Made by a program: the position numbers and the translations under genes | The notes under the pieces: model-generated | Databases searched by the model: none | Seen by the model: only the letters and a program-made list of their open reading frames with translations | What the model was told of the DNA's origin: nothing | In this document: piece by piece, positions 1-9,798 of the stretch | How the letters are laid out: every line of letters begins with the position of its first letter | Numbering within the stretch: the first letter of the stretch is position 1 | Assembly (NCBI GenBank): GCA_024275415.1 | Contig: JAJRZD010000011.1 | Location: forward strand, 1 to 9,798 | Length of the DNA stretch: 9,798 nucleotides | Direction: 5' to 3' | Source: an archaeon | GTDB lineage: Archaea; Asgardarchaeota; Thorarchaeia; Thorarchaeales; Thorarchaeaceae

Positions 1-139
1 CTAATGCAATCAGGATTGACCGCCTCGTATCGTTGAGAGCAGACATCATCTGCACTAGGTCATATACATCCTGCAGTATATCTTTGTCATTCATACCTCT
101 CATCCATTCTTCAACATTTATGTGCAGATGAATACACAT
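1..139 (-). CDS. Partial CDS (5' end only, runs off the left edge); possible ArsR-like winged-HTH regulator
   Basis: Manual translation of the minus strand from the ATG at 139 is open to the edge: MCIHLHINVEEWMRGMNDKDILQDVYDLVQMMSALNDTRRSILIAL. The end resembles the 'L.n.tR..IL..L' first helix of ArsR-type HTH proteins. The true start could be 139, 103 or 94. Confidence 0.4.
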   Translation of the reverse strand, partial: MCIHLHINVEEWMRGMNDKDILQDVYDLVQMMSALNDTRRSILIAL

Positions 140-310
140 TCAAATTCTCACAGCAAGACATTCAATCTGCAACGTCCTACCTTTTGAAAGGACTATTTCT
201 GTGTTCCTAGCTGTTTCCTTTATCGAATTGGTAAGTCTTGCATAGAGTTAATAATGTTAGAATGATAAAAACGTAATAGAACTTCTGATTACAGGAGGAT
301 CACGAGAATT

Positions 311-880
311 ATGGCTTTCGGTTCAAAGTACTTCGGCTGGCTAGCAGCACTCCTCATCGTTCTTGGTGCGGGGTGGCTCCTGTTACCAGAGGGGTACAAC
401 ACCTTGATTCTCTGGCTATCCCCTCAGCTTGGCAATTACGTCCGTCCGACCATGGTAATGGTCAATGCGATTCTTGTCAATCCATTGAATAACTACGTCA
501 TGGTTGCGATCTGGGCAGTAGCTGGGTTTGTAGGTGGAGCAATAGCCGGAACCAAGAAAGGAGCATTTGTTGTAGGATTATTCACATGGCTGTCAGCTTT
601 ACTCATCCTAGCATTCAGCGTCTACCAACTATTGATTACTGGGATGGATCTTGGCACATTGCCACCTATGCCACCTGGTACATCTATCACGGACCTACTT
701 GGAATTCCATTGGTTCAATCAATTATTGGTGAACTGCTCGGACTTCTAGGTGGATTCGGCGGTGGCGGAGGTATCGACATGTTGGCAGTATTGACACCGT
801 TGCTTATCTGGGTTATCACACCGGTGGTAGTCGTCATTGTTACTGGGATGGTCGGTGCCACTGTACGGCCAAAGGAGTGA
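311..880 (+). CDS. Multi-pass (about 5 TM), Gly-rich hypothetical membrane protein
   Basis: 189-aa ORF with several hydrophobic segments and small-residue GxxxG-type motifs (AGFVGGAIAG). AGGAGG lies upstream at about 293-298. It ends 8 nt before the next gene. Confidence 0.85.
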   Translation: MAFGSKYFGWLAALLIVLGAGWLLLPEGYNTLILWLSPQLGNYVRPTMVMVNAILVNPLNNYVMVAIWAVAGFVGGAIAGTKKGAFVVGLFTWLSALLILAFSVYQLLITGMDLGTLPPMPPGTSITDLLGIPLVQSIIGELLGLLGGFGGGGGIDMLAVLTPLLIWVITPVVVVIVTGMVGATVRPKE

Positions 881-888
881 TATGAAAA

Positions 889-2541
889 ATGAAAAAGATA
901 CGAATAGAGCACGCTTTTGTTGTGTTGTTCATAGGCTTTCTTGTTATGGCACCTCTGACTGCATCCGCAGGACACACGCTCGCTCAAGACGGATTCAGTG
1001 GCGAGGACCTGTTCCAGGGACTCATCACTGATGGAGCTGAAGTGATGTACTCCATGATTGATGACCAGGGAGTGCCTGCTGCGATCTATGGTCAACTCGG
1101 AATACCATCAAGCGACTTGAACCTTGATGACCCCATGTATGAGGGATCTCTAGCCATGGCGTTAGTGTCCACACATGGAGAGTTCTTAGATATTATAATG
1201 GAACTGATAGGCGGTGGGGCATTCACTGGTAATAGTAGCAGTACGCCTGCACAGTTCGCGCTCGCTCAGGATAGTGGGGGATTTGATCCAAATTCCATAT
1301 TGGACATGGTCGGGACTGAATTCAATCTCCTTGCCAACGTCATTGTGAATGTGGACGAGGCGACTTCGCAGTCAAGGATGGCAAGCATCCTCAACCACCT
1401 GCAGGCACAGTTTGGATTTAGCTTCACCGAGCTTTTGAAACTAAGGATTGACGAGAACACACTTCCGCCTGATGTCAATATAACCTTACCATTCACCTCT
1501 ATGGATTTGTACCTCTATAAAGAGAATCACGAGTTCGGTCTTGCAGTCGATACAATCTTTGGAGTCATGAGCAGCACAGGGTTCTTGGGTTCAATCAACA
1601 CTGATGTGTTCAAGAATGCCTTCGCATCAGCTGCAGGGTTGTTAGTGATTCCTGATATGGCCGACCTAGTAGATCTCATCGAGTCATTCGATAGCGGTGG
1701 ACAAGGTGCAGCAGGCTTTACGTCAACAATTCTTGCTCAGGGTGACAGTTCTGGTTTCTTATTCAACGTAACTGGCCCAGTTGCTATAGCTGCTGCTGGG
1801 TATCTGGGAGAACAAATCCTTTCAACGGACTCAACAAGCCTTAGCATTGGCGACCTCTTCGGAGTAACCGGAAACATCGAGCCATTCTCGAGTGCGAACT
1901 CGCTGATAGTAACTCAGCTCCCAAGCAATCTAAACATCACCTCGATCACACCAGATGCTGTGAACCAGAGTTTCTATGACAACAGCACTAACATGGTCTT
2001 CTGGAACGCGACCGCTTTCGGGACTCAGTCTGAATATGTGATCAATTTTGAAGGTGACTTTCCACCGTTAATCACCATTGAGAGAACATTCTCACCGGAG
2101 GAGAACATTGCGGGAGGCACCACGACCGTCACTGTGACTGTGACCAATGAGGGGAGCGATCCTATCAGCAATCTTGTCATCACTGACAACACGCTCGCAT
2201 CCACCTATTCTACGGTCACCGTTACTGGTGTGACCTCTGACACTGTAACGACCTTAGCTGGGGGTGCCAGTGTCACAATCGAGTACCAGGTCACCTTCCA
2301 GAACGAGGGTGGATATGGCTTCGATCCTGTCCAGATTTCCTACGAGTACAACAGTCAAACCTACTACAAACAGAGCCACACTGAAGGATACACGGTCAAT
2401 CCTGATATCGGTGGACTCTTTGCAGAGGGGGTTATGAGTACCATGCCATTCTCTGGTATCGCCCTCGGTGTTGTTGGCCTTGTAGGTATCTACTCCATTA
2501 TGGGACTTGTACGCAGTAGAAACGATACTTTCCAAGTCTAG
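889..2541 (+). CDS. Exported, C-terminally membrane-anchored cell-surface protein with a DUF11/Ig-like domain (S-layer-like or adhesin-like)
   Basis: Basic N-terminus plus hydrophobic core plus ASA gives a Sec signal peptide. PPLITIERTFSP...TVTVTVTNEG..PISNLVITD is typical of DUF11/CARDB-like Ig beta-sandwiches. There are several N-x-S/T sequons (NSS, NIT, NVT, NQS, NST, NAT) and a C-terminal TM helix with a short tail. The SD-like GGAGTGA at 874-880 overlaps the upstream stop codon. Confidence 0.8.
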   Translation: MKKIRIEHAFVVLFIGFLVMAPLTASAGHTLAQDGFSGEDLFQGLITDGAEVMYSMIDDQGVPAAIYGQLGIPSSDLNLDDPMYEGSLAMALVSTHGEFLDIIMELIGGGAFTGNSSSTPAQFALAQDSGGFDPNSILDMVGTEFNLLANVIVNVDEATSQSRMASILNHLQAQFGFSFTELLKLRIDENTLPPDVNITLPFTSMDLYLYKENHEFGLAVDTIFGVMSSTGFLGSINTDVFKNAFASAAGLLVIPDMADLVDLIESFDSGGQGAAGFTSTILAQGDSSGFLFNVTGPVAIAAAGYLGEQILSTDSTSLSIGDLFGVTGNIEPFSSANSLIVTQLPSNLNITSITPDAVNQSFYDNSTNMVFWNATAFGTQSEYVINFEGDFPPLITIERTFSPEENIAGGTTTVTVTVTNEGSDPISNLVITDNTLASTYSTVTVTGVTSDTVTTLAGGASVTIEYQVTFQNEGGYGFDPVQISYEYNSQTYYKQSHTEGYTVNPDIGGLFAEGVMSTMPFSGIALGVVGLVGIYSIMGLVRSRNDTFQV

Positions 2542-2546
2542 ATTAA

Positions 2547-2590
2547 GAGCGTCCTCCGATGTATTTCGGAGGGCTCCTACTTTCTTTTTT
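2547..2590 (+). terminator. Intrinsic terminator (hairpin plus T-tract)
   Basis: GAGC-gt-CCTCCGA-tgtatt-TCGGAGG-GCTC stem-loop (2547-2576) followed by TTTCTTTTTT (2581-2590), 5 nt after the 2541 stop. Confidence 0.75.
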
Positions 2591-2634
2591 GCATACAGTT
2601 TATCTTCAAGGCGAACTATCAAGAATCGGTCACA

Positions 2635-3570
2635 ATGCCTCTGAAAGACGCTTTGAACGGCTATCTTCGCTCTCCTCGGAACTTCTTTGGAATCCCTGAG
2701 CCAATGGATGAAGAACCTGATGTTGGGATTCTTGGAATACCTTATGACCTAACATCGAGCCACACTCCCGGTGCCCGCTTTGGACCTGACTCTATCCGCA
2801 GAGCGACTGATAGCGAGAGGTCTCACAGCTACCCCCTCACCCTTACTGATGCCTATCACGGATGGAACAAGGCATTGTCATCTGTCCTGACACTAGAGGA
2901 CATTGGAGACCTCGAAGTAGGTGTCCAACTACCCGAGTCTGTGGCAATCCATATCTCTGATGCTGCATCTATCCTTTCCAGTTCGTCAAGCGGACTTGTG
3001 TTCTTAGGTGGAGATCACTTCATCACGTATCCTGTCCTTAGAGGGGTGAAGCGGACTCGTGCCGAGGAGATAGGATTAGTGTATCTAGATTCCCATGCGG
3101 ACTTCTACGACGACATGGGCGGAATGACGCTCTCTCACGCATCGACGCTTCGCAGGATTGTCGACGATAGATTGGTCGCCATCGAGAATGTCGTCGGGTT
3201 TGACCTCAGATGTGTCACTCCAGACCAGAGAGTGGAATTAGGTGATAGTGTATGTCCTTCGGATATGACTAGTTTGATGAAACGGATTGGCGAGCTAGCT
3301 AAGAGTGTCGAGTTACTGTATGTATCAGTTGACCTTGATGTCCTGACCCCCACGGTTTCTCCCGCCGTTTCTCATCCTGAATCCGGAGGACTTTCTATCT
3401 CTGAACTTGTGACCATTGTTGATGCCTGTTTTGCAACCCGAAAAGTTCAGTATTGTGATATTGTGGAATTGAATCCAATGCTGGACAATGCCCGCCTCTC
3501 AGAGCTCGCAGCTAGAGACATCCTCAAGGCAATCCTGACCGGGTTTGCGTATCACAAGGAATTTAAGTAG
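2635..3570 (+). CDS. speB: Ureohydrolase (arginase/agmatinase family), probable agmatinase
   Basis: GIPYD...PGARFGPDSIR N-terminal motif. The complete binuclear Mn ligand set is present: GGDH, DSHAD, DLD. C-terminal DIVELNP. Substrate assignment is less certain than the family assignment. Confidence 0.8.
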   Translation: MPLKDALNGYLRSPRNFFGIPEPMDEEPDVGILGIPYDLTSSHTPGARFGPDSIRRATDSERSHSYPLTLTDAYHGWNKALSSVLTLEDIGDLEVGVQLPESVAIHISDAASILSSSSSGLVFLGGDHFITYPVLRGVKRTRAEEIGLVYLDSHADFYDDMGGMTLSHASTLRRIVDDRLVAIENVVGFDLRCVTPDQRVELGDSVCPSDMTSLMKRIGELAKSVELLYVSVDLDVLTPTVSPAVSHPESGGLSISELVTIVDACFATRKVQYCDIVELNPMLDNARLSELAARDILKAILTGFAYHKEFK

Positions 3571-3598: not shown

Positions 3599-4345
3599 AT
3601 GAGCCTCAGTAGTGATCTGACCATTGACGTGGTGGAAAATCGAGTGACAGAGATACTCCGAGACCTGGGCTTTGGAGCTCACGAGTCTGCAGTTATCATC
3701 GCGCTCAATCAGTTAGCGTCAGCGACTGTGGCAGACCTACACTCATTGACTGGGATACATCATGCAAATCTATATGCCGTCTTGGATGGGCTTGTCGCAA
3801 AAGGCATTGTCATCGGGAACGAGGGGCGGCCAAAGGAATATCAATTCGCGCCTCTCGAACATATCGAAGACCTACTGTCAAGCAAGATACGTCAGCTTGT
3901 CGATGGGTTGCAGCGGATACAGGCAGAGAGAACAACCGAAGGTGCAGTCCCCGCACTGATCTATACGATCCGGGGGACACAGGATGTACGCTCAAAGCTT
4001 GCCAGCATGATACGACGTGCGGATGAGAGGATATTGCTTGTAGGTCCTACAATCGACCTCTTTGGCGACGATATCATTGGTCTGCTTAATGACGCCTCAG
4101 AACGGGGCGTGAAGGTCAGAGCCATTCTAGGGGTATCCTCATCCAAGCTTGACCGGAGAATCCAGCAGAGGATAAAAAAAGACACCCTTGCTGTCAACCT
4201 TGTCAGGGACGGGACAGAAGCGGTTATCTCTATGCCTGACTTCAGTGTGTGCGGATGGGCGGACAACGTATTAATATCCCAGCAGTTCGAAGGCTTTCTT
4301 GAGCAAACGTGGAAATCGCGAGGAAGACTAGATGACCGATTATGA
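3599..4345 (+). CDS. TrmB-family transcriptional regulator (N-terminal wHTH, C-terminal effector-binding domain)
   Basis: LGFGAHESAVIIAL...ATVADL...TGI....LYAVLDGLVAKGIV....GRPKEY is the TrmB HTH pattern. ASMIRRADERILL...ASERGVKVRAI...NLVRDGTEAVI matches the PLD-like TrmB sugar-binding domain. Confidence 0.9.
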   Translation: MSLSSDLTIDVVENRVTEILRDLGFGAHESAVIIALNQLASATVADLHSLTGIHHANLYAVLDGLVAKGIVIGNEGRPKEYQFAPLEHIEDLLSSKIRQLVDGLQRIQAERTTEGAVPALIYTIRGTQDVRSKLASMIRRADERILLVGPTIDLFGDDIIGLLNDASERGVKVRAILGVSSSKLDRRIQQRIKKDTLAVNLVRDGTEAVISMPDFSVCGWADNVLISQQFEGFLEQTWKSRGRLDDRL

Positions 4346-5714: not shown

Positions 5715-6665
5715 TTGATGAGATGCATCGGACAGATGGGTAACATTGACATCTTTGTTCCTACCGATGCATACCTCTCTTTGTTCAATAGCCCGTATAT
5801 CGGTCATATCAAAGGCTCAGCATTAGATGTATATCCGGCACATGAAGAATGGGATGGCCCCGCGAAATCACCCGTTTCGGGAAAAGTCACTCATATCCAT
5901 AGGATCCGGATGGGAAAGAAGGGCGAATTCTTTACCAATGAGTTCGACTATGCGATCGGGATCACTCCACTGGGTCGAGAGGATGAAATCGTCCGTGTCC
6001 TTCATTGTCATCCCACTGTTGATATCGGACAGGTCGTTGAGATTGGTGACGAAATAGGCTCGTTGTTAAGGTCAAGGTATTTTAACTTCTGGACTGGTCC
6101 TCACTACCATCTGGAAGCAATGCAGGCACAATTTTTCAAACGCTCGTCGCAATCCTTTCTTTTCGGATCCATGAAACCTATGGAGCCGAATTTGATGGTA
6201 TACATTGGAACGTGCCTCTTCGATTCCTCATGGATCATCGAACGGGTGACCGACGATTACATTTTACTGGCTTCTAAAGATGCGGAATTCGGGTCTGTCA
6301 ATGGTTATTTTGGACATCTGGCACATCTCGGCGAATCACAGAAAGCACTACTGGACATGGGATTCCCACATTACCACTACGGAGGGCTATATGGATTAGA
6401 CAGTCCATCAGTTGGTAAGGTCAGGATTGGCGATGTCACCATCGGCTCCAACGCTGAAGCACATAGAGGAGTCGTGCAATTCCGGACATATCAAACTCGG
6501 CAGATCCTGTTGAATAATGAACGTGTCAGAGGCATCTCGACCTATCTCTATTCCTCAAGGCAATTAGTCAAAGGAAAACCACTACTGAAAATAATCCCTC
6601 TCCAGTATCCAGCTTACACCTTCCATGTGAGCGAGGGCGAACATGTCAGCTTCACGGTGTCGTAG
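5715..6665 (+). CDS. Archaeal M23/LytM-like zinc metallopeptidase-domain protein
   Basis: H31-x6-D38 (GHIKGSALD), SPVSGKV, H97 followed by TVDIGQVVEIGDEIG, and TGPHYHLE (HxH) reproduce the M23 fold pattern. The start may be the ATG at 5736 (GGA 6 nt upstream) rather than the TTG at 5715. Confidence 0.65.
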   Translation: MMRCIGQMGNIDIFVPTDAYLSLFNSPYIGHIKGSALDVYPAHEEWDGPAKSPVSGKVTHIHRIRMGKKGEFFTNEFDYAIGITPLGREDEIVRVLHCHPTVDIGQVVEIGDEIGSLLRSRYFNFWTGPHYHLEAMQAQFFKRSSQSFLFGSMKPMEPNLMVYIGTCLFDSSWIIERVTDDYILLASKDAEFGSVNGYFGHLAHLGESQKALLDMGFPHYHYGGLYGLDSPSVGKVRIGDVTIGSNAEAHRGVVQFRTYQTRQILLNNERVRGISTYLYSSRQLVKGKPLLKIIPLQYPAYTFHVSEGEHVSFTVS

Positions 6666-6705
6666 GGCATCCAGTTGTACATGGAAACAAGCGCATTACC
6701 ATTCA

Positions 6706-6787
6706 TTAACCAGCTTGGCTATCAGCTCCTGATGTCAACTCATATGGTTAATAAACACTCAAGTTAACCAATAAGGTAAACTTAAAT
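6706..6787 (+). promoter_or_regulatory. Three phased semi-palindromic operator-like boxes plus a TATA-like element upstream of the 6813 gene
   Basis: TAACCA-gct-TGGCTA (6707-6721), CAACTC-ata-TGGTTA (6736-6750) and TAACCA-ata-AGGTAA (6765-6779) start exactly 29 bp apart. CTTAAAT at 6781-6787 is TATA-like. Confidence 0.55.
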
Positions 6788-6812
6788 CGTTACAACACGC
6801 CCTGCGTATTCG

Positions 6813-7310
6813 GTGATTCAATTGGTTGAACGCGGAAAAGTGTTGAGCGGGCTGCTTGTGCTCATCTGTATCGTTGTGCTAACTATGTTCCGAATCATCG
6901 CTCTTGAGCCAGTATCTACCTTCGTGACGATAGTGGCTGGCTTCTTGCTCGCTCTGGTTCTGCCAGGGATAGTAATTGATGCCATCCTCGCAAGCGTTGC
7001 CAAAGAGCTGAATGGTGATGAAGACAATCGCTGTGGCGGTATTCCCAGAGGAGGATATTTGATTGGGCTCACTGAGAGAAGTCTGATCTTTCTGTCTTTC
7101 CTGATTAGCTATTATGACAATGCAATATCCTATTCTTCTATTCTGGGTTTTCTTTCCTTCGTAGTCGCAGCAAAGGCAATCTTTCGTTATTCCAGTAGGG
7201 ACTCGGGAAATCGCGCGTGTGCAGATTGGTATATTCTAGGCACACTCCTGAGCATCACGATGGGACTTGGAGTTTCATGGTTTGTCTTCAGGTTTCTACT
7301 AACCGGGTGA
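6813..7310 (+). CDS. DUF3307-like membrane protein (C-terminal part only)
   Basis: GGYLIGLTERSLIF, AAKAIFRY and DWYILGTLLS match the conserved C-terminal motifs of DUF3307 proteins (G..IG.LER, AAKSIFRF, EY.LIGTL.S). About 4-5 TM helices. An alternative start is the TTG at 6822 with SD GGTGA at 6812-6816. Confidence 0.65.
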   Translation: MIQLVERGKVLSGLLVLICIVVLTMFRIIALEPVSTFVTIVAGFLLALVLPGIVIDAILASVAKELNGDEDNRCGGIPRGGYLIGLTERSLIFLSFLISYYDNAISYSSILGFLSFVVAAKAIFRYSSRDSGNRACADWYILGTLLSITMGLGVSWFVFRFLLTG

Positions 7311-7317
7311 GTCATCA

Positions 7318-7923
7318 TTGATCGCAGTCATCATAGATGTAGTGTCATCACAAAAACTGTCGGCACATGAGAGGAGGTCGCTGGACATGAAGATTCGGAG
7401 CCTTCTTGATGCCACTCGAAATCGGTTCAAAAAGTACTGTCTTGCAAACCCGTCATTGACCCAAGGTGATAGCATCGAAATGCTCGTGGACAACTGGTTG
7501 CCGGTCATATATACAATCCATCGATTACGCATGGATGGCATAGAGGTAAAAACAGGGTTTGGGACTAAGAAAATCATCGTCCATAATGAAGATGCTGACG
7601 AATGTGATGGCCCCGCGTTCTGGAATGCCCGACAAGCACTGAGTGACATCAAGGTGCCCTCTTTCCGACAAAGACCGGCTGCTTTTGTCTTTGAGAGGAG
7701 AACCCCTAATAATGAAATGAACGAAGTACTGAAGGCAATCCTGTTTCTTACCACGCTCATGGGCATGACCTCGACCCAGCTGACATTCAGTTACCATATG
7801 GTCTGGGAGAAAAAGAATGTGACTGAAATCGCAGAGATAGTCGAAACCTCAAAGGCGAATGTCAGCAAGACTCTGAACAAGACCCCGAGTTATGTCTTGC
7901 GCGATATCATATCCCTTCACTAG
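7318..7923 (+). CDS. satD: SatD-family protein (class III nucleotidyl-cyclase-like fold plus C-terminal HTH)
   Basis: IAVIIDVVSS (D7), LTQGDSIEML (D51), GFG and DGPAFWNAR are SatD signature motifs. The C-terminal TSTQ...NVTEIAEIVETSKANVSKTL is an HTH. TTG start with SD GGGTGA (7305-7310) overlapping the upstream stop. Confidence 0.85.
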   Translation: MIAVIIDVVSSQKLSAHERRSLDMKIRSLLDATRNRFKKYCLANPSLTQGDSIEMLVDNWLPVIYTIHRLRMDGIEVKTGFGTKKIIVHNEDADECDGPAFWNARQALSDIKVPSFRQRPAAFVFERRTPNNEMNEVLKAILFLTTLMGMTSTQLTFSYHMVWEKKNVTEIAEIVETSKANVSKTLNKTPSYVLRDIISLH

Positions 7924-8085
7924 AACAAGACGGCATCATAGAACACCGCTCATTGCAAGTCACATCCTGTTAAATGGACTGCAAAGGGATGGTACAGATT
8001 TACTCAAGCCGTGTGCATCTGTAGAGGACTCGTAGGATAGTCATTCTAAACTATGTGAGTACACCCAGCAAGATAATTCGCTTTC

Positions 8086-8394
8086 CTACTGCTCATCCGT
8101 CGGTATTTCCTCATGCTTTCTGCTCAACGTCCATGAGCCAAGTAGTGAGACCCACCAGAACAGAATCGTGCTGAAGTTTATAGTCATGACCCAAATGGCC
8201 GCGGTCAAGAAGAACTGGAGAACCAACGCTGTTTCACTGGATGGTGGACGACCCCATATCAGCAGAGCGAAAAAGAATCCCACCTGGATCAAAAGCCCAA
8301 GCACAATCAATACCTGTGTGATCAACAGAGCTTTCTGCTCAGTTATGAACGTCTTGACACGAAAGGTATTCACCACGCTACACCAATCAACCAC
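8086..8394 (-). CDS. Small hypothetical membrane protein (2 TM helices)
   Basis: 102-aa ORF with two long hydrophobic stretches separated by GRPPSSE and an acidic C-terminal tail. GTG start preceded by G-rich GAGTGGGG; an in-frame stop at 8431-8433 limits upstream extension. Confidence 0.55.
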   Translation of the reverse strand: MVDWCSVVNTFRVKTFITEQKALLITQVLIVLGLLIQVGFFFALLIWGRPPSSETALVLQFFLTAAIWVMTINFSTILFWWVSLLGSWTLSRKHEEIPTDEQ

Positions 8395-8699
8395 AACCCC
8401 ACTCGTGACTAAAAGTTCTTTCGGGAATGGCTATCCGTCCCGATATGAAATAGCCCTCTCTCATGTCAGCTGTAGCCTGCATCATCCACTGTCGATTATC
8501 ACCCCCTCGCCGCCAGTCGATGCCCCTTTCCTTTCCAACCTCTTTCTGCTCATTTTGCTTCTTTGGGTTGAATCGCTATTTGATAAGGTCACTAACAGGT
8601 GACTTGGCGCTCTCAGTACACTGATGTTCAGTATTGGCATATTCCAGACTTTTTTGATAAAAATACTGGTTCCCCATCGAGTTTCATGGATCATGAGTT

Positions 8700-8855
8700 C
8701 TATAGTAGCCATTCTTTCAATATCGCAAATCCCATAACCCTTATCCATTTGCGATTTCCTATATATATCCCTCTGCAAAAAATGAAAATCGACAAAAATA
8801 TCAACTGCACTCTCTCAGGCAAAGAAATATATCTATAATACGCTATTTTGACGCT
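8700..8855 (+). promoter_or_regulatory. CRISPR leader with BRE/TATA-like promoter
   Basis: AT-rich non-coding stretch directly before repeat 1. AAAGAAA (8821-8827) followed by TATATCTATAAT (8828-8839) lies about 28 bp upstream of the first repeat. A-tracts at 8777-8798 and an inverted repeat at 8722-8755. The left boundary is approximate. Confidence 0.65.
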
Positions 8856-9787
8856 GTTGCACAGGCTAAGCTTCAGAAAAGAAGATTGAAATCACTGACT
8901 TTTCCATAGACTTTCCTAATATGAGAAATAGGTTGCACAGGCTAAGCTTCAGAAAAGAAGATTGAAATTCTTGTGTTTTGCCTTACACCTGTTGAATGCA
9001 CGTCGTTGCACAGGCTAAGCTTCAGAAAAGAAGATTGAAATCTAGAGTGCCAAAGCAAGTTCCATTCTATGTGAACTTGGTTGCACAGGCTAAGCTTCAG
9101 AAAAGAAGATTGAAATAAGGGGCCCGAAGAACGTGCTCGGTGTGACCCCCCATTGTTGCACAGGCTAAGCTTCAGAAAAGAAGATTGAAATAAATATGTT
9201 GCTAAACATAGTCGTTAGGAGAGGAGCAATGTTGCACAGGCTAAGCTTCAGAAAAGAAGATTGAAATGATAACATTCCCTGCAGTCGTGCCAGTAGCATA
9301 GAATACCGTTGCACAGGCTAAGCTTCAGAAAAGAAGATTGAAATCTGCTATAAGAAGAGTCGTCAATGACGTGAGCAAGTTGCACAGGCTAAGCTTCAGA
9401 AAAGAAGATTGAAATTGGTGGAGTTGGCTAAGTCCGGCTGGTTTTGTTTCGAATGTTGCACAGGCTAAGCTTCAGAAAAGAAGATTGAAATAGAATCATG
9501 CACAGGTGGCCCAGAGGGAGTTTATCGTTGCACAGGCTAAGCTTCAGAAAAGAAGATTGAAATGTTGTACCTCGACTGAACAAGATACTCTTCGCTCACG
9601 TTGCACAGGCTAAGCTTCAGAAAAGAAGATTGAAAGGGCCGGCATAGGGTTGTCCAACGTGATTCCGAAAGACGCGTTGCACAGGCTAAGCTTCAGAAAA
9701 GAAGATTGAAAGACTGAATAATCAAAGAACGTAAGAGGATTTACTGCAAAGTTGCACAGGCTAAGCTTCAGAAAAGAAGAGATTACG
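8856..9787 (+). CRISPR. CRISPR array: 13 repeats (12 full plus 1 degenerate terminal) and 12 unique spacers of 34-40 bp
   Basis: Repeat GTTGCACAGGCTAAGCTTCAGAAAAGAAGATTGAAA(T/G), 37 bp, starting at 8856, 8932, 9005, 9080, 9155, 9231, 9308, 9379, 9455, 9527, 9600, 9676 and 9751. The last copy matches for 30 bp and then diverges. A CTTC-AGAAAA-GAAG hairpin sits immediately before an 8-nt ATTGAAAN handle, as in Cas6-processed type I/III repeats. Orientation is given by the leader at left and decay at right. Confidence 0.98.
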
Positions 9788-9798
9788 ACCATCACAGA

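Follow-up and report, generated by a model that had tools for sequence, protein, structure and literature searches.

The locus described here raises the question of what a gene for a SatD-family protein and a gene for a small membrane protein are doing side by side just ahead of an array of clustered regularly interspaced short palindromic repeats (CRISPR): whether they make a nucleotide-signalling or defence module connected with that array, or a unit of another kind that lies next to it by chance. The stretch of DNA that was analysed (the window, 9,798 nt) comes from an archaeon of the Thorarchaeaceae (Asgardarchaeota; assembly GCA_024275415.1, contig JAJRZD010000011.1) and is a complete 9,798-bp contig (C98) of a 3.5-Mb genome in 127 contigs that is 92.9% complete. 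SatD and SatE are named after satD-satE of the sat operon of Streptococcus mutans. We conclude that the cassette in the window is a reduced, reordered, Asgard-specific form of the known, uncharacterised SatD/SatE cassette. As to its function, we lean, with modest confidence, towards a nucleotide-gated autorepressor (SatD) with an obligate membrane partner.

The product of the second gene matches the Pfam family PF16264 over residues 2-187 with 48.8 bits against a cut-off of 29 (E-value 8.9e-13), and with 47.9 bits in a search of the whole genome. The 80 homologues (~203 aa, 43-59% identity) span the full TTG-initiated SatD and align from residue 1 of that form. The comparisons below use 43 Asgard SatD loci: 40 taken from genomes, two from public contigs and the one in the window. 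Named homologues of the window proteins are found in Thorarchaeota and other Asgard archaea.

Gene pair, operator array and membrane partner

Of the 41 loci that include the flank, 39 have the partner next to SatD. In the thorarchaeal SatD clade to which the window belongs (the Thor clade), the partner is upstream of SatD in all 26 loci that have it. In the other Asgard SatD clade it is downstream, and it is also short there (130-150 aa). The window reverses the order of SatD followed by SatE that is seen in bacteria, on a haloarchaeal plasmid and in the other Asgard clade. The members of this second clade (L064-L074) combine higher Pfam scores with the canonical order and a short partner without a DUF3307 match. 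No third gene is conserved beside the pair across loci; the next most common neighbour, an ATP-binding cassette (ABC) transporter ATPase, is present at 10 loci at varying distances.

An original prediction, made from the letters of the window alone, had described the two genes as a translationally coupled unit with its own operator-bearing promoter, and both parts of the description hold in comparison with relatives. In the window 7 nt separate the partner stop codon from SatD; of 24 relatives, 17 have exactly this gap and 23 have one of 4-8 nt. The partner gene terminates in GGGTGA, which resembles a Shine-Dalgarno (SD) sequence, in 13 of the 24 loci. The start codons of SatD in these relatives are ATG (16), GTG (5) and TTG (3).

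The promoter of the pair carries an array of half-sites: ATTAAC at 6705, GTCAAC at 6734, GTTAAT at 6747, GTTAAC at 6763 and GTAAAC at 6776, set in two phases with a 29-bp period and 13/16-bp alternation, the last of them abutting a TATA-like TTAAAT at 6782-6787. Thor-clade loci likewise have GTWAAC-type half-sites arrayed ahead of the pair, the array closing with GGTAAAC-TTATAA, again TATA-like. Over the 170 nt upstream at 25 loci the half-sites reach a density of 15.3 per kb, vs 0.29 per kb elsewhere in the loci, a 53-fold enrichment, and their spacing peaks at 13, 16, 29, 42 and 58 bp, which is the same 16/13 alternation with a 29-bp period. The cassette promoter is the only place in the 3.5-Mb genome with the palindrome GTWAAY-N9-11-RTTWAC. 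The array is kept among relatives with only ~50% protein identity. The other Asgard SatD clade has comparable upstream arrays made of a different half-site (GTTGAC/GTCAAC); therefore, the site changes with the protein. From this conservation of the sites at ~50% protein identity, from their overlap with the core promoter and from their change with the SatD clade we infer that SatD binds the half-sites and represses its own operon. A scan of the window for sigma-70 promoters and terminators gave matches at the chance level, the models used not being applicable to archaea.

The partner is predicted to form five long transmembrane (TM) helices (AlphaFold2 model with a predicted local distance difference test score, pLDDT, of 82.8). 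Translation is more likely to start at the TTG at 6822 (giving 162 aa) than at the GTG at 6813, because homologues align from the former and an SD-like GGTGA (6812-6816) stands where relatives have GGTG before ATG. Two loops of the protein are conserved, C74-G-G..G80-G81..I84-G85..E88-R89 and A119..K121-A-I-F-R125-Y-S-S..R134..C136-A-D138-W-Y..G143-T144..S147, with two cysteines, C74 and C136, that are specific to the clade. A pair of conserved stretches, residues 61-80 and 124-137, would face the cytoplasm. None of the 75 close homologues (~163 aa) has a Pfam domain, and PF11750 (DUF3307) is matched neither by 33 partners of the clade at E-values up to 1 nor by the window partner at E-values up to 10.

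The origin of the partner became visible in a search with a 33-sequence profile against 1.84 billion representatives, which returned 2,292 relatives. Most of them are 240-280 aa long and are matched only in the C-terminal half. The longer relatives carry DUF3307 in their N-terminal 110 residues; wherever the gene for such a protein was looked up, in bacteria or on a haloarchaeal plasmid, it immediately follows SatD. HHalign placed partner residues 33-165 onto residues 124-248 of bacterial SatE (probability 99.8%, E-value 4.8e-28). This homology region falls outside the Pfam DUF3307 model, and the two proteins have in common the motifs G..GG..IG..ER.LIF, AAK(S/A)IFR(F/Y) and (E/D)(Y/W)..(I/L)GT..S. 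The His/Asp-rich DUF3307 module of SatE, with invariant H14, D18, Q22, H39, H72, D76, D93-Q94 and H97, is absent from the partner. The partner is therefore the C-terminal module of SatE only. The full-length relatives include 8-TM forms with a His/Asp centre. A search for the fold of the partner among 48,161 PDB chains was set aside: the best Z score, 9.7, to RND/SSD-type and UbiA-type bundles, is below the informative level for helical proteins.

The surroundings of SatD differ at three of the loci. At L054, in a genome of the Thor family, the SatE-like gene and the operators are replaced by an AT-rich, divergent gene of the PycTM family (9391-9912, minus strand; PF18967, 34.8 bits vs a cut-off of 27.2; PADLOC, 5e-22), and SatD (10001-10615, plus strand) is intact. 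L063 has an intact, fast-evolving SatD (1993-2610, minus strand) with no recognisable partner in the 516 nt upstream (2611-3126), followed by MutS; it may be a decaying cassette. At L075, which is from another Asgard family, SatD is fused at its C terminus to an Mrr_cat restriction-endonuclease-like domain (9759-10727, plus strand; E-value 1.9e-4, just at the cut-off), and the SatE-like gene is divergent and lies ~500 nt upstream of SatD rather than directly downstream.

The two domains of SatD

The AlphaFold2 model of SatD, built on an alignment of 34 sequences, has a pLDDT of 93.7; its elements are a beta-alpha-beta-beta-alpha-beta core, a helix at residues 99-112 and a last strand to residue ~125, after which five helices follow (131-199). 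In a Foldseek search of the PDB the top 34 matches were class III adenylyl or guanylyl cyclases or cyclase-like proteins, including Ma1120, Rv1900c (1ybt), OaPAC, Rv1264 and Cya2. The best match, to 5d0h, had an E-value of 3.4e-4 and a root-mean-square deviation (rmsd) of 3.1 over 118 columns; for the best matches as a group the template modelling score (TM-score) by target was ~0.5, with 116-122 columns and an rmsd of 2.8-3.8. GTP cyclohydrolase III and a GGDEF domain (6eib, rank 49) stood lower in the list, and no Cas10 or mCpol structure was among the top 50. The cyclase fold foreseen for SatD is supported by the model.

Sequence searches did not reach as far. In Pfam, at E-values up to 0.01, PF16264 alone was reported and PF00211, the canonical class III cyclase family, gave no match; cyclases were also out of reach of profile searches of PDB sequences with SatD alignments. 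PsaD repeats, the top match of the first of the PDB profile searches, were rejected as a short chance match to an FWxxRxAL helix.

In the 34 aligned Asgard SatD proteins D7, S11, R19, G50-D51-S52, E54, G80 and G82 are invariant, as is the segment D97-G98..F101-W-N103-A-R105. The corresponding motifs of the window protein are IIDVVSS (D7), TQGDS (G50-D51-S52) and DGPAFWNAR (D97-R105). In the model D7 is at the end of beta1, G50-D51 in the beta2-beta3 hairpin, and D97-G98 with N103/R105 at the start of helix 99-112; these residues are equated with the catalytic residues of cyclases by the topology of the fold, not by residue-level superposition. The conservation goes well beyond the clade: D7, S11, G50-D51, G98 and F101 are retained in other Asgard and in bacterial SatDs, down to ~20% identity. 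Thus, the two aspartates singled out earlier as putative metal ligands, D7 and D51, are kept family-wide. For the suggestion that DGPAFWNAR stands where class III cyclases have their Asn/Arg motif, the picture is mixed. N103 and R105 are invariant in the Thor clade, but in other SatDs position 103 is R, N or S (position 105 is mostly R or K), and the spacing is N-x-R. Because the aspartates, S11, G98, F101 and mostly R105 are kept even in distant bacterial SatDs, the conserved residues look like a working metal-nucleotide site and not a relic.

Compared with class III cyclases (Ma1120 of Mycobacterium avium, 5d0h/4wp9; Rv1900c of M. tuberculosis, 1ybt; OaPAC), residues 1-125 of SatD have the same fold, and by topology the same placement of aspartates at the end of beta1 and in the beta2-beta3 hairpin and of a polar Asn/Arg pair at the next helix. 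The SatD domain differs in being ~125 aa long instead of 160-190, in missing the last strands, in giving no PF00211 match and in being fused to a helix-turn-helix (HTH) domain. In cyclases the Asn/Arg spacing is N-x-x-x-R. The shorter spacing in SatD and the variation of N103 outside the clade are further differences. Another comparison is with mCpol of Panoptes, the Cas10 palm and GGDEF, which are minimal palm-domain signal synthases. SatD has in common with them a small palm-type domain and two acidic metal ligands; it differs by having QGDS and no GGDD/GGDEF motif, and the partner and the regulatory layout differ as well.

The five C-terminal helices form the second domain, and the HTH assigned to SatD from the start is supported by profile and structural matches of the sigma-70 region 4 type. 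The profile matches are weak but consistent: UPF0122/YlxM (1xsv, E-value 0.005), an archaeal regulator (8hnp) and region 4 of SigF; Sigma70_r4 and HTH_3 matches are found in one SatD relative. The putative recognition helix is residues 179-187 (KANVSKTLN). The near full-length structural neighbours in the ESM Atlas are bacterial SatD clusters (TM-score 0.69-0.78 over 176-198 residues), which also bear Sigma70_r4, HTH_24 or GerE. The two-domain architecture of SatD, a palm/cyclase-like N-terminal domain and a C-terminal HTH, is thus present in the window protein.

Insertion site, CRISPR array and neighbouring genes

The features of the window are collected in Table 1. No RNA family was detected in the window with Rfam, and for 6400-8400 there was no listed sequencing run of RNA or DNA.

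Table 1. Positions of the SatD cassette, its parts and the flanking features in the window (ORF, open reading frame)
Feature	Position	Strand	Description and basis
Genes before the cassette, in order		+	Hypothetical gene, DUF11/CARDB surface protein, agmatinase, TrmB-like regulator with PLD-like domain, digeranylgeranylglycerophospholipid reductase, 316-aa hypothetical gene
Whole cassette	6666..8085		Promoter, two genes and 162-nt 3' flank, between convergent resident genes 5715-6665(+) and 8086-8394(-)
Operator array and core promoter	6705..6787	+	Predicted from sequence and comparison with Thor-clade relatives
SatE-like membrane partner gene	6813-7310	+	165-aa ORF
Coupling junction	7305..7320	+	GGG-TGA stop (7308-7310; SD-like GGTGA), 7 nt, TTG start of SatD
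SatD gene	7318-7923	+	201-aa ORF, PF16264
SatD N-terminal domain	7318..7692	+	Residues 1-125, predicted minimal class III cyclase/palm fold (AlphaFold2, Foldseek)
SatD C-terminal domain	7708..7914	+	Residues 131-199, predicted five-helix sigma-70-region-4-like HTH (AlphaFold2, profile matches)
Small membrane-protein gene, resident	8086-8394	-	102 aa, without Pfam match
AT-rich leader (~460 nt), then CRISPR array	8395-9798		13 repeats of 37 nt, from 8856 to contig end

Four genomes of the same genus have an empty site. In them the homologues of genes 5715-6665 and 8086-8394 are convergent and at most ~20 nt apart, the synteny upstream is kept, and SatD is found nowhere in the genome. The homologues of 8086-8394 are 49-68% identical and in the same position. 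After this small gene the four sister genomes have no array; the next conserved gene is the one that in our genome starts contig C100. The comparison therefore shows that the cassette and the array are separate indels flanking a conserved gene. The local map reads: resident gene, cassette, resident gene, leader with orphan array, resident gene. The cassette has been gained or lost as one 1.4-kb unit with its own promoter; its borders show no target duplication and no convincing terminal repeats, inverted or direct.

The product of the upstream resident gene (5715-6665, plus strand; 316 aa) has no Pfam or NCBIfam match and is 44-50% identical in same-genus genomes vs 82-88% for the adjacent reductase. 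Further upstream, the TrmB-type HTH regulator with a C-terminal phospholipase D (PLD)-like domain (3599-4345, plus strand) has weak matches to the DrmC and MkoB defence models. Its gene shares 14 nt with the start of the lipid reductase gene and keeps its synteny in the sister genomes, and for these reasons it is probably a housekeeping regulator.

The closeness of the pair to the array, put at under 1 kb in the original prediction, is correct as a distance: the first repeat (8856) begins 932 nt past the SatD stop codon. The resident gene 8086-8394 lies between the two. When C98 is joined to C100 (C100:1-115), the array proves to be an orphan bounded by housekeeping genes; the Cas1 genes of the genome are on other contigs, and the genome has at least six CRISPR arrays. 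Among all 43 Asgard SatD loci a repeat scan found arrays within 10 kb at two, the window and L058. In the latter the array is 7 kb away, and the operon between SatD and the array, a candidate cas operon at one point, is a histidine biosynthesis operon (hisG-hisD-hisC-hisB-hisH). As far as genome comparison can tell, the cassette has no functional link to the CRISPR array, and the adjacency is a coincidence.

As to the array itself, its repeats end in ATTGAAAT/G, and the last of the 13 is degenerate. Contig C100 opens with the same degenerate terminal repeat and flank that close C98, but the last spacers differ, a difference that points to strain variation or to collapse in the assembly. Related repeats are present on contigs C113 (beside Cas1), C6 and C29.

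A defence context could also have shown itself in other neighbours of the pair. Within 3.5 kb of 27 Thor-clade pairs there are 133 ORFs, whose top Pfam domains are ABC_tran and SMC_N (the same proteins), PadR, UPF0014, CitMHS, AsnC-type HTH and PEMT. The list also includes CitMHS/ArsB permeases, pyridoxal-phosphate (PLP) enzymes, TldD/PmbA, glyoxalases and biosynthetic genes, and it is mostly housekeeping. This survey is a census without a matched control set, not a statistical test, and it gave no sign of a defence island around the 27 pairs. Neither SatD nor the partner matches a PADLOC model; the PADLOC matches of neighbours (mad3/mad8, AriA, CasR/Csa3 and Cas12f), which were not each mapped to an ORF, were put down to cross-matching by ABC-type ATPases, HTH regulators and TnpB. 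With arrays at 2 of 43 loci, mostly housekeeping neighbours and separate insertions of cassette and array, the proposed tie to CRISPR or to defence islands is not upheld. At one locus, L005, a 1,169-aa protein with DEAD/ResIII helicase, winged HTH and Cas1 domains (1-2313, plus strand) is encoded 3.7 kb upstream of the SatD pair, and an IS605-type TnpB just downstream.

SatD is a single-copy gene. It is carried by 30 of 86 genomes of the family, by 12 of 23 high-quality genomes and by one of seven genomes of the genus; two fragmented assemblies show the single SatD as two partial matches on separate contigs. In the phylum it is present in 59 of 400 genomes. The SatD tree splits the Thor clade from the other Asgard type with 100/100 support. 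The genus labels on the tree require 13 changes vs a mean of 21.1 for shuffled labels. The protein is too short for tracing transfers within the family, the inner branches being unresolved, so that it is the clustering of labels and the deep split that can be used. The window SatD is on a long branch.

This picture agrees with a cassette that is old in Asgard archaea and has been lost many times and gained at some, the insertion in the window being one of the gains. A recent import from bacteria, which the original prediction had thought possible, is not supported by a tree with an Asgard-only clade so separated; what does stand is that the cassette is a discrete unit of gain and loss. Searches of viral contigs gave pattern matches to Thor-type SatD, none of which was confirmed. 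Plasmids gave no match to the window SatD, and with a bacterial SatD as query the canonical pair turned up on two haloarchaeal megaplasmids only.

Weighing the readings of the cassette

How might a nucleotide-gated autorepressor with a membrane partner work? SatD would be a transcription factor whose HTH most likely binds the 29-bp-periodic GTWAAC array running into its own TATA box, and its binding to this operator would shut off its own operon. The N-terminal domain most likely binds a magnesium-nucleoside triphosphate complex (Mg-NTP), possibly at a cyclase-like dimer interface and possibly with turnover; this binding would set the occupancy of the operator. The 5-TM partner would be made in a fixed ratio with SatD by way of translational coupling, and may be either a membrane activity under the control of the switch or a membrane input to it. 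Both the binding or turnover of nucleotide by SatD and the communication between SatD and the partner are what we infer in this scheme.

Several observations weigh against it. Strict retention of both catalytic-type aspartates, of S11 and of R105 fits an active enzyme better than a ligand sensor. If the sole operator in the genome is that of its own promoter, regulation alone leaves the output of the module unexplained. The patchy distribution, the variable context, the small membrane protein and the autoregulated promoter are hallmarks of conflict or toxin-antitoxin modules; the same side is taken by the PycTM gene in the place of the partner at L054 and by the fusion of SatD to an Mrr-type nuclease at L075. 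The papers found on SatD, SatE and DUF3307 offer passing mentions of the family or the sat operon, and one jumbo-phage paper names DUF3307.

Could the pair be a second-messenger conflict system? SatD would then be an active minimal cyclase or nucleotidyltransferase that responds to a trigger with a nucleotide signal; the signal would open or activate the membrane partner and arrest the infected cell, as in Pycsar or in CBASS with TM effectors, the HTH serving only to keep expression low. We regard this as unlikely, although it is the main rival reading. The conservation of the cyclase fold, of both metal aspartates and of S11, D97-G98 and R105 argues for it, but the domain of ~125 aa is without the C-terminal strands of cyclases, and N103 is not conserved family-wide. 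A canonical class III cyclase (PF00211) was found neither in this genome nor in 40 relatives, which leaves SatD as the sole protein of the fold type detected here; yet we know of no characterised cyclase-based defence system whose synthase has a DNA-binding domain. That the cassette is patchy, single-copy and a discrete indel would suit a conflict system, whereas the missing PADLOC matches of both proteins, the lack of defence enrichment among the 133 neighbours, the arrays near only 2 of 43 loci and the lack of confirmed finds in viral contigs would not.

A known system close to such a scheme is Pycsar, reportedly composed of a PycC cyclase with a PycTM or PycTIR effector (Tal et al. 2021). 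Like it, the cassette places a cyclase-fold protein beside a small membrane protein, and L054, where an intact SatD is back-to-back with a gene in place of the partner and operators, provides a true PycTM-family neighbour; the SatD-Mrr_cat fusion at L075 points the same way. The window partner, in contrast, has no PycTM match in Pfam or PADLOC, SatD has an HTH with predicted autoregulation, and there is no defence-island context. Nor is the association general: PycTM genes are present in 21 of 400 Asgard genomes (loci L077-L098), with SatD as a neighbour at only one of 22 PycTM loci and PycTM as a neighbour at one of 43 SatD loci (L054). A more specific version makes SatD an active minimal cyclase-fold enzyme that couples DNA binding to signal synthesis and the SatE C-terminal module its receptor or effector, in an autoregulated conflict module common to bacteria and Asgard archaea, the effector being swappable for PycTM or a fused Mrr-type nuclease. 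This version is more doubtful again.

The pair might also be taken for a toxin-antitoxin-like module, in which the partner would be a membrane-damaging toxin and SatD a DNA-binding antitoxin and autorepressor whose cyclase-fold domain neutralises or senses, with no diffusible signal. Two short coupled genes behind an autoregulated promoter with an operator array, strictly paired and co-diverging, would be expected of such a module, but the partner, with 5 TM helices, invariant polar residues and 2,292 relatives, resembles an enzyme or transporter more than a pore-forming peptide, and the conservation of the metal site would go unexplained. The patchy distribution and precise indel are in keeping with it, while the single copy per genome and the absence of plasmid or virus association for the clade are not. 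The intact SatD without a partner at L054 and L063 would be a harmless antitoxin state and does not discriminate. On balance we find a module of this type improbable.

Finally, that the pair works with the adjacent array or a type III system is hardly credible: against the 932 nt to the first repeat in this genome alone and an array 7 kb away in one relative stand the intervening resident gene conserved in sister genomes that are without both elements at the site, the orphan state of an array set between housekeeping genes in a genome with Cas1 on other contigs and at least six arrays, and the histidine biosynthesis operon that intervenes in the relative.

We thus return to the autorepressor with a membrane partner, and to the wider SatD/SatE family in which it has to be seen. 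The window has the two-domain SatD, the tight link to a SatE-homologous membrane protein and the operator array ahead of the operon in common with other SatD/SatE pairs. It differs in having the membrane gene first and a 163-aa, 5-TM partner equivalent to residues ~124-248 of SatE only, without the N-terminal His/Asp module of DUF3307 and with C74 and C136, in an Asgard-only clade. The pairing of SatD with a DUF3307 protein that had been read from the window is accordingly right in that the partner is a homologue of SatE and obligate, and wrong as to the DUF3307 domain and the usual gene order.

SatD-SatE pairs, which annotation pipelines list by name, occur widely in both bacteria and archaea, their function and chemistry being uncharacterised, and the Asgard form is the most reduced version among those compared. 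It shows that SatD is always accompanied by the C-terminal four-helix module of SatE and not by the His/Asp-rich DUF3307, which makes this module the one to examine for an interaction. With its rigid 29-bp period and its single occurrence in the genome, the operator array offers a ready-made DNA-binding assay, and the clean comparison with the empty site shows the pair to behave as a single mobile accessory unit. Adjacency to CRISPR in a genome with at least six arrays is uninformative by itself. If the cyclase fold of SatD is active, the cassette would be a nucleotide-signalling system of a new type among the archaeal relatives of eukaryotes, in genomes where our searches found no canonical class III cyclases.

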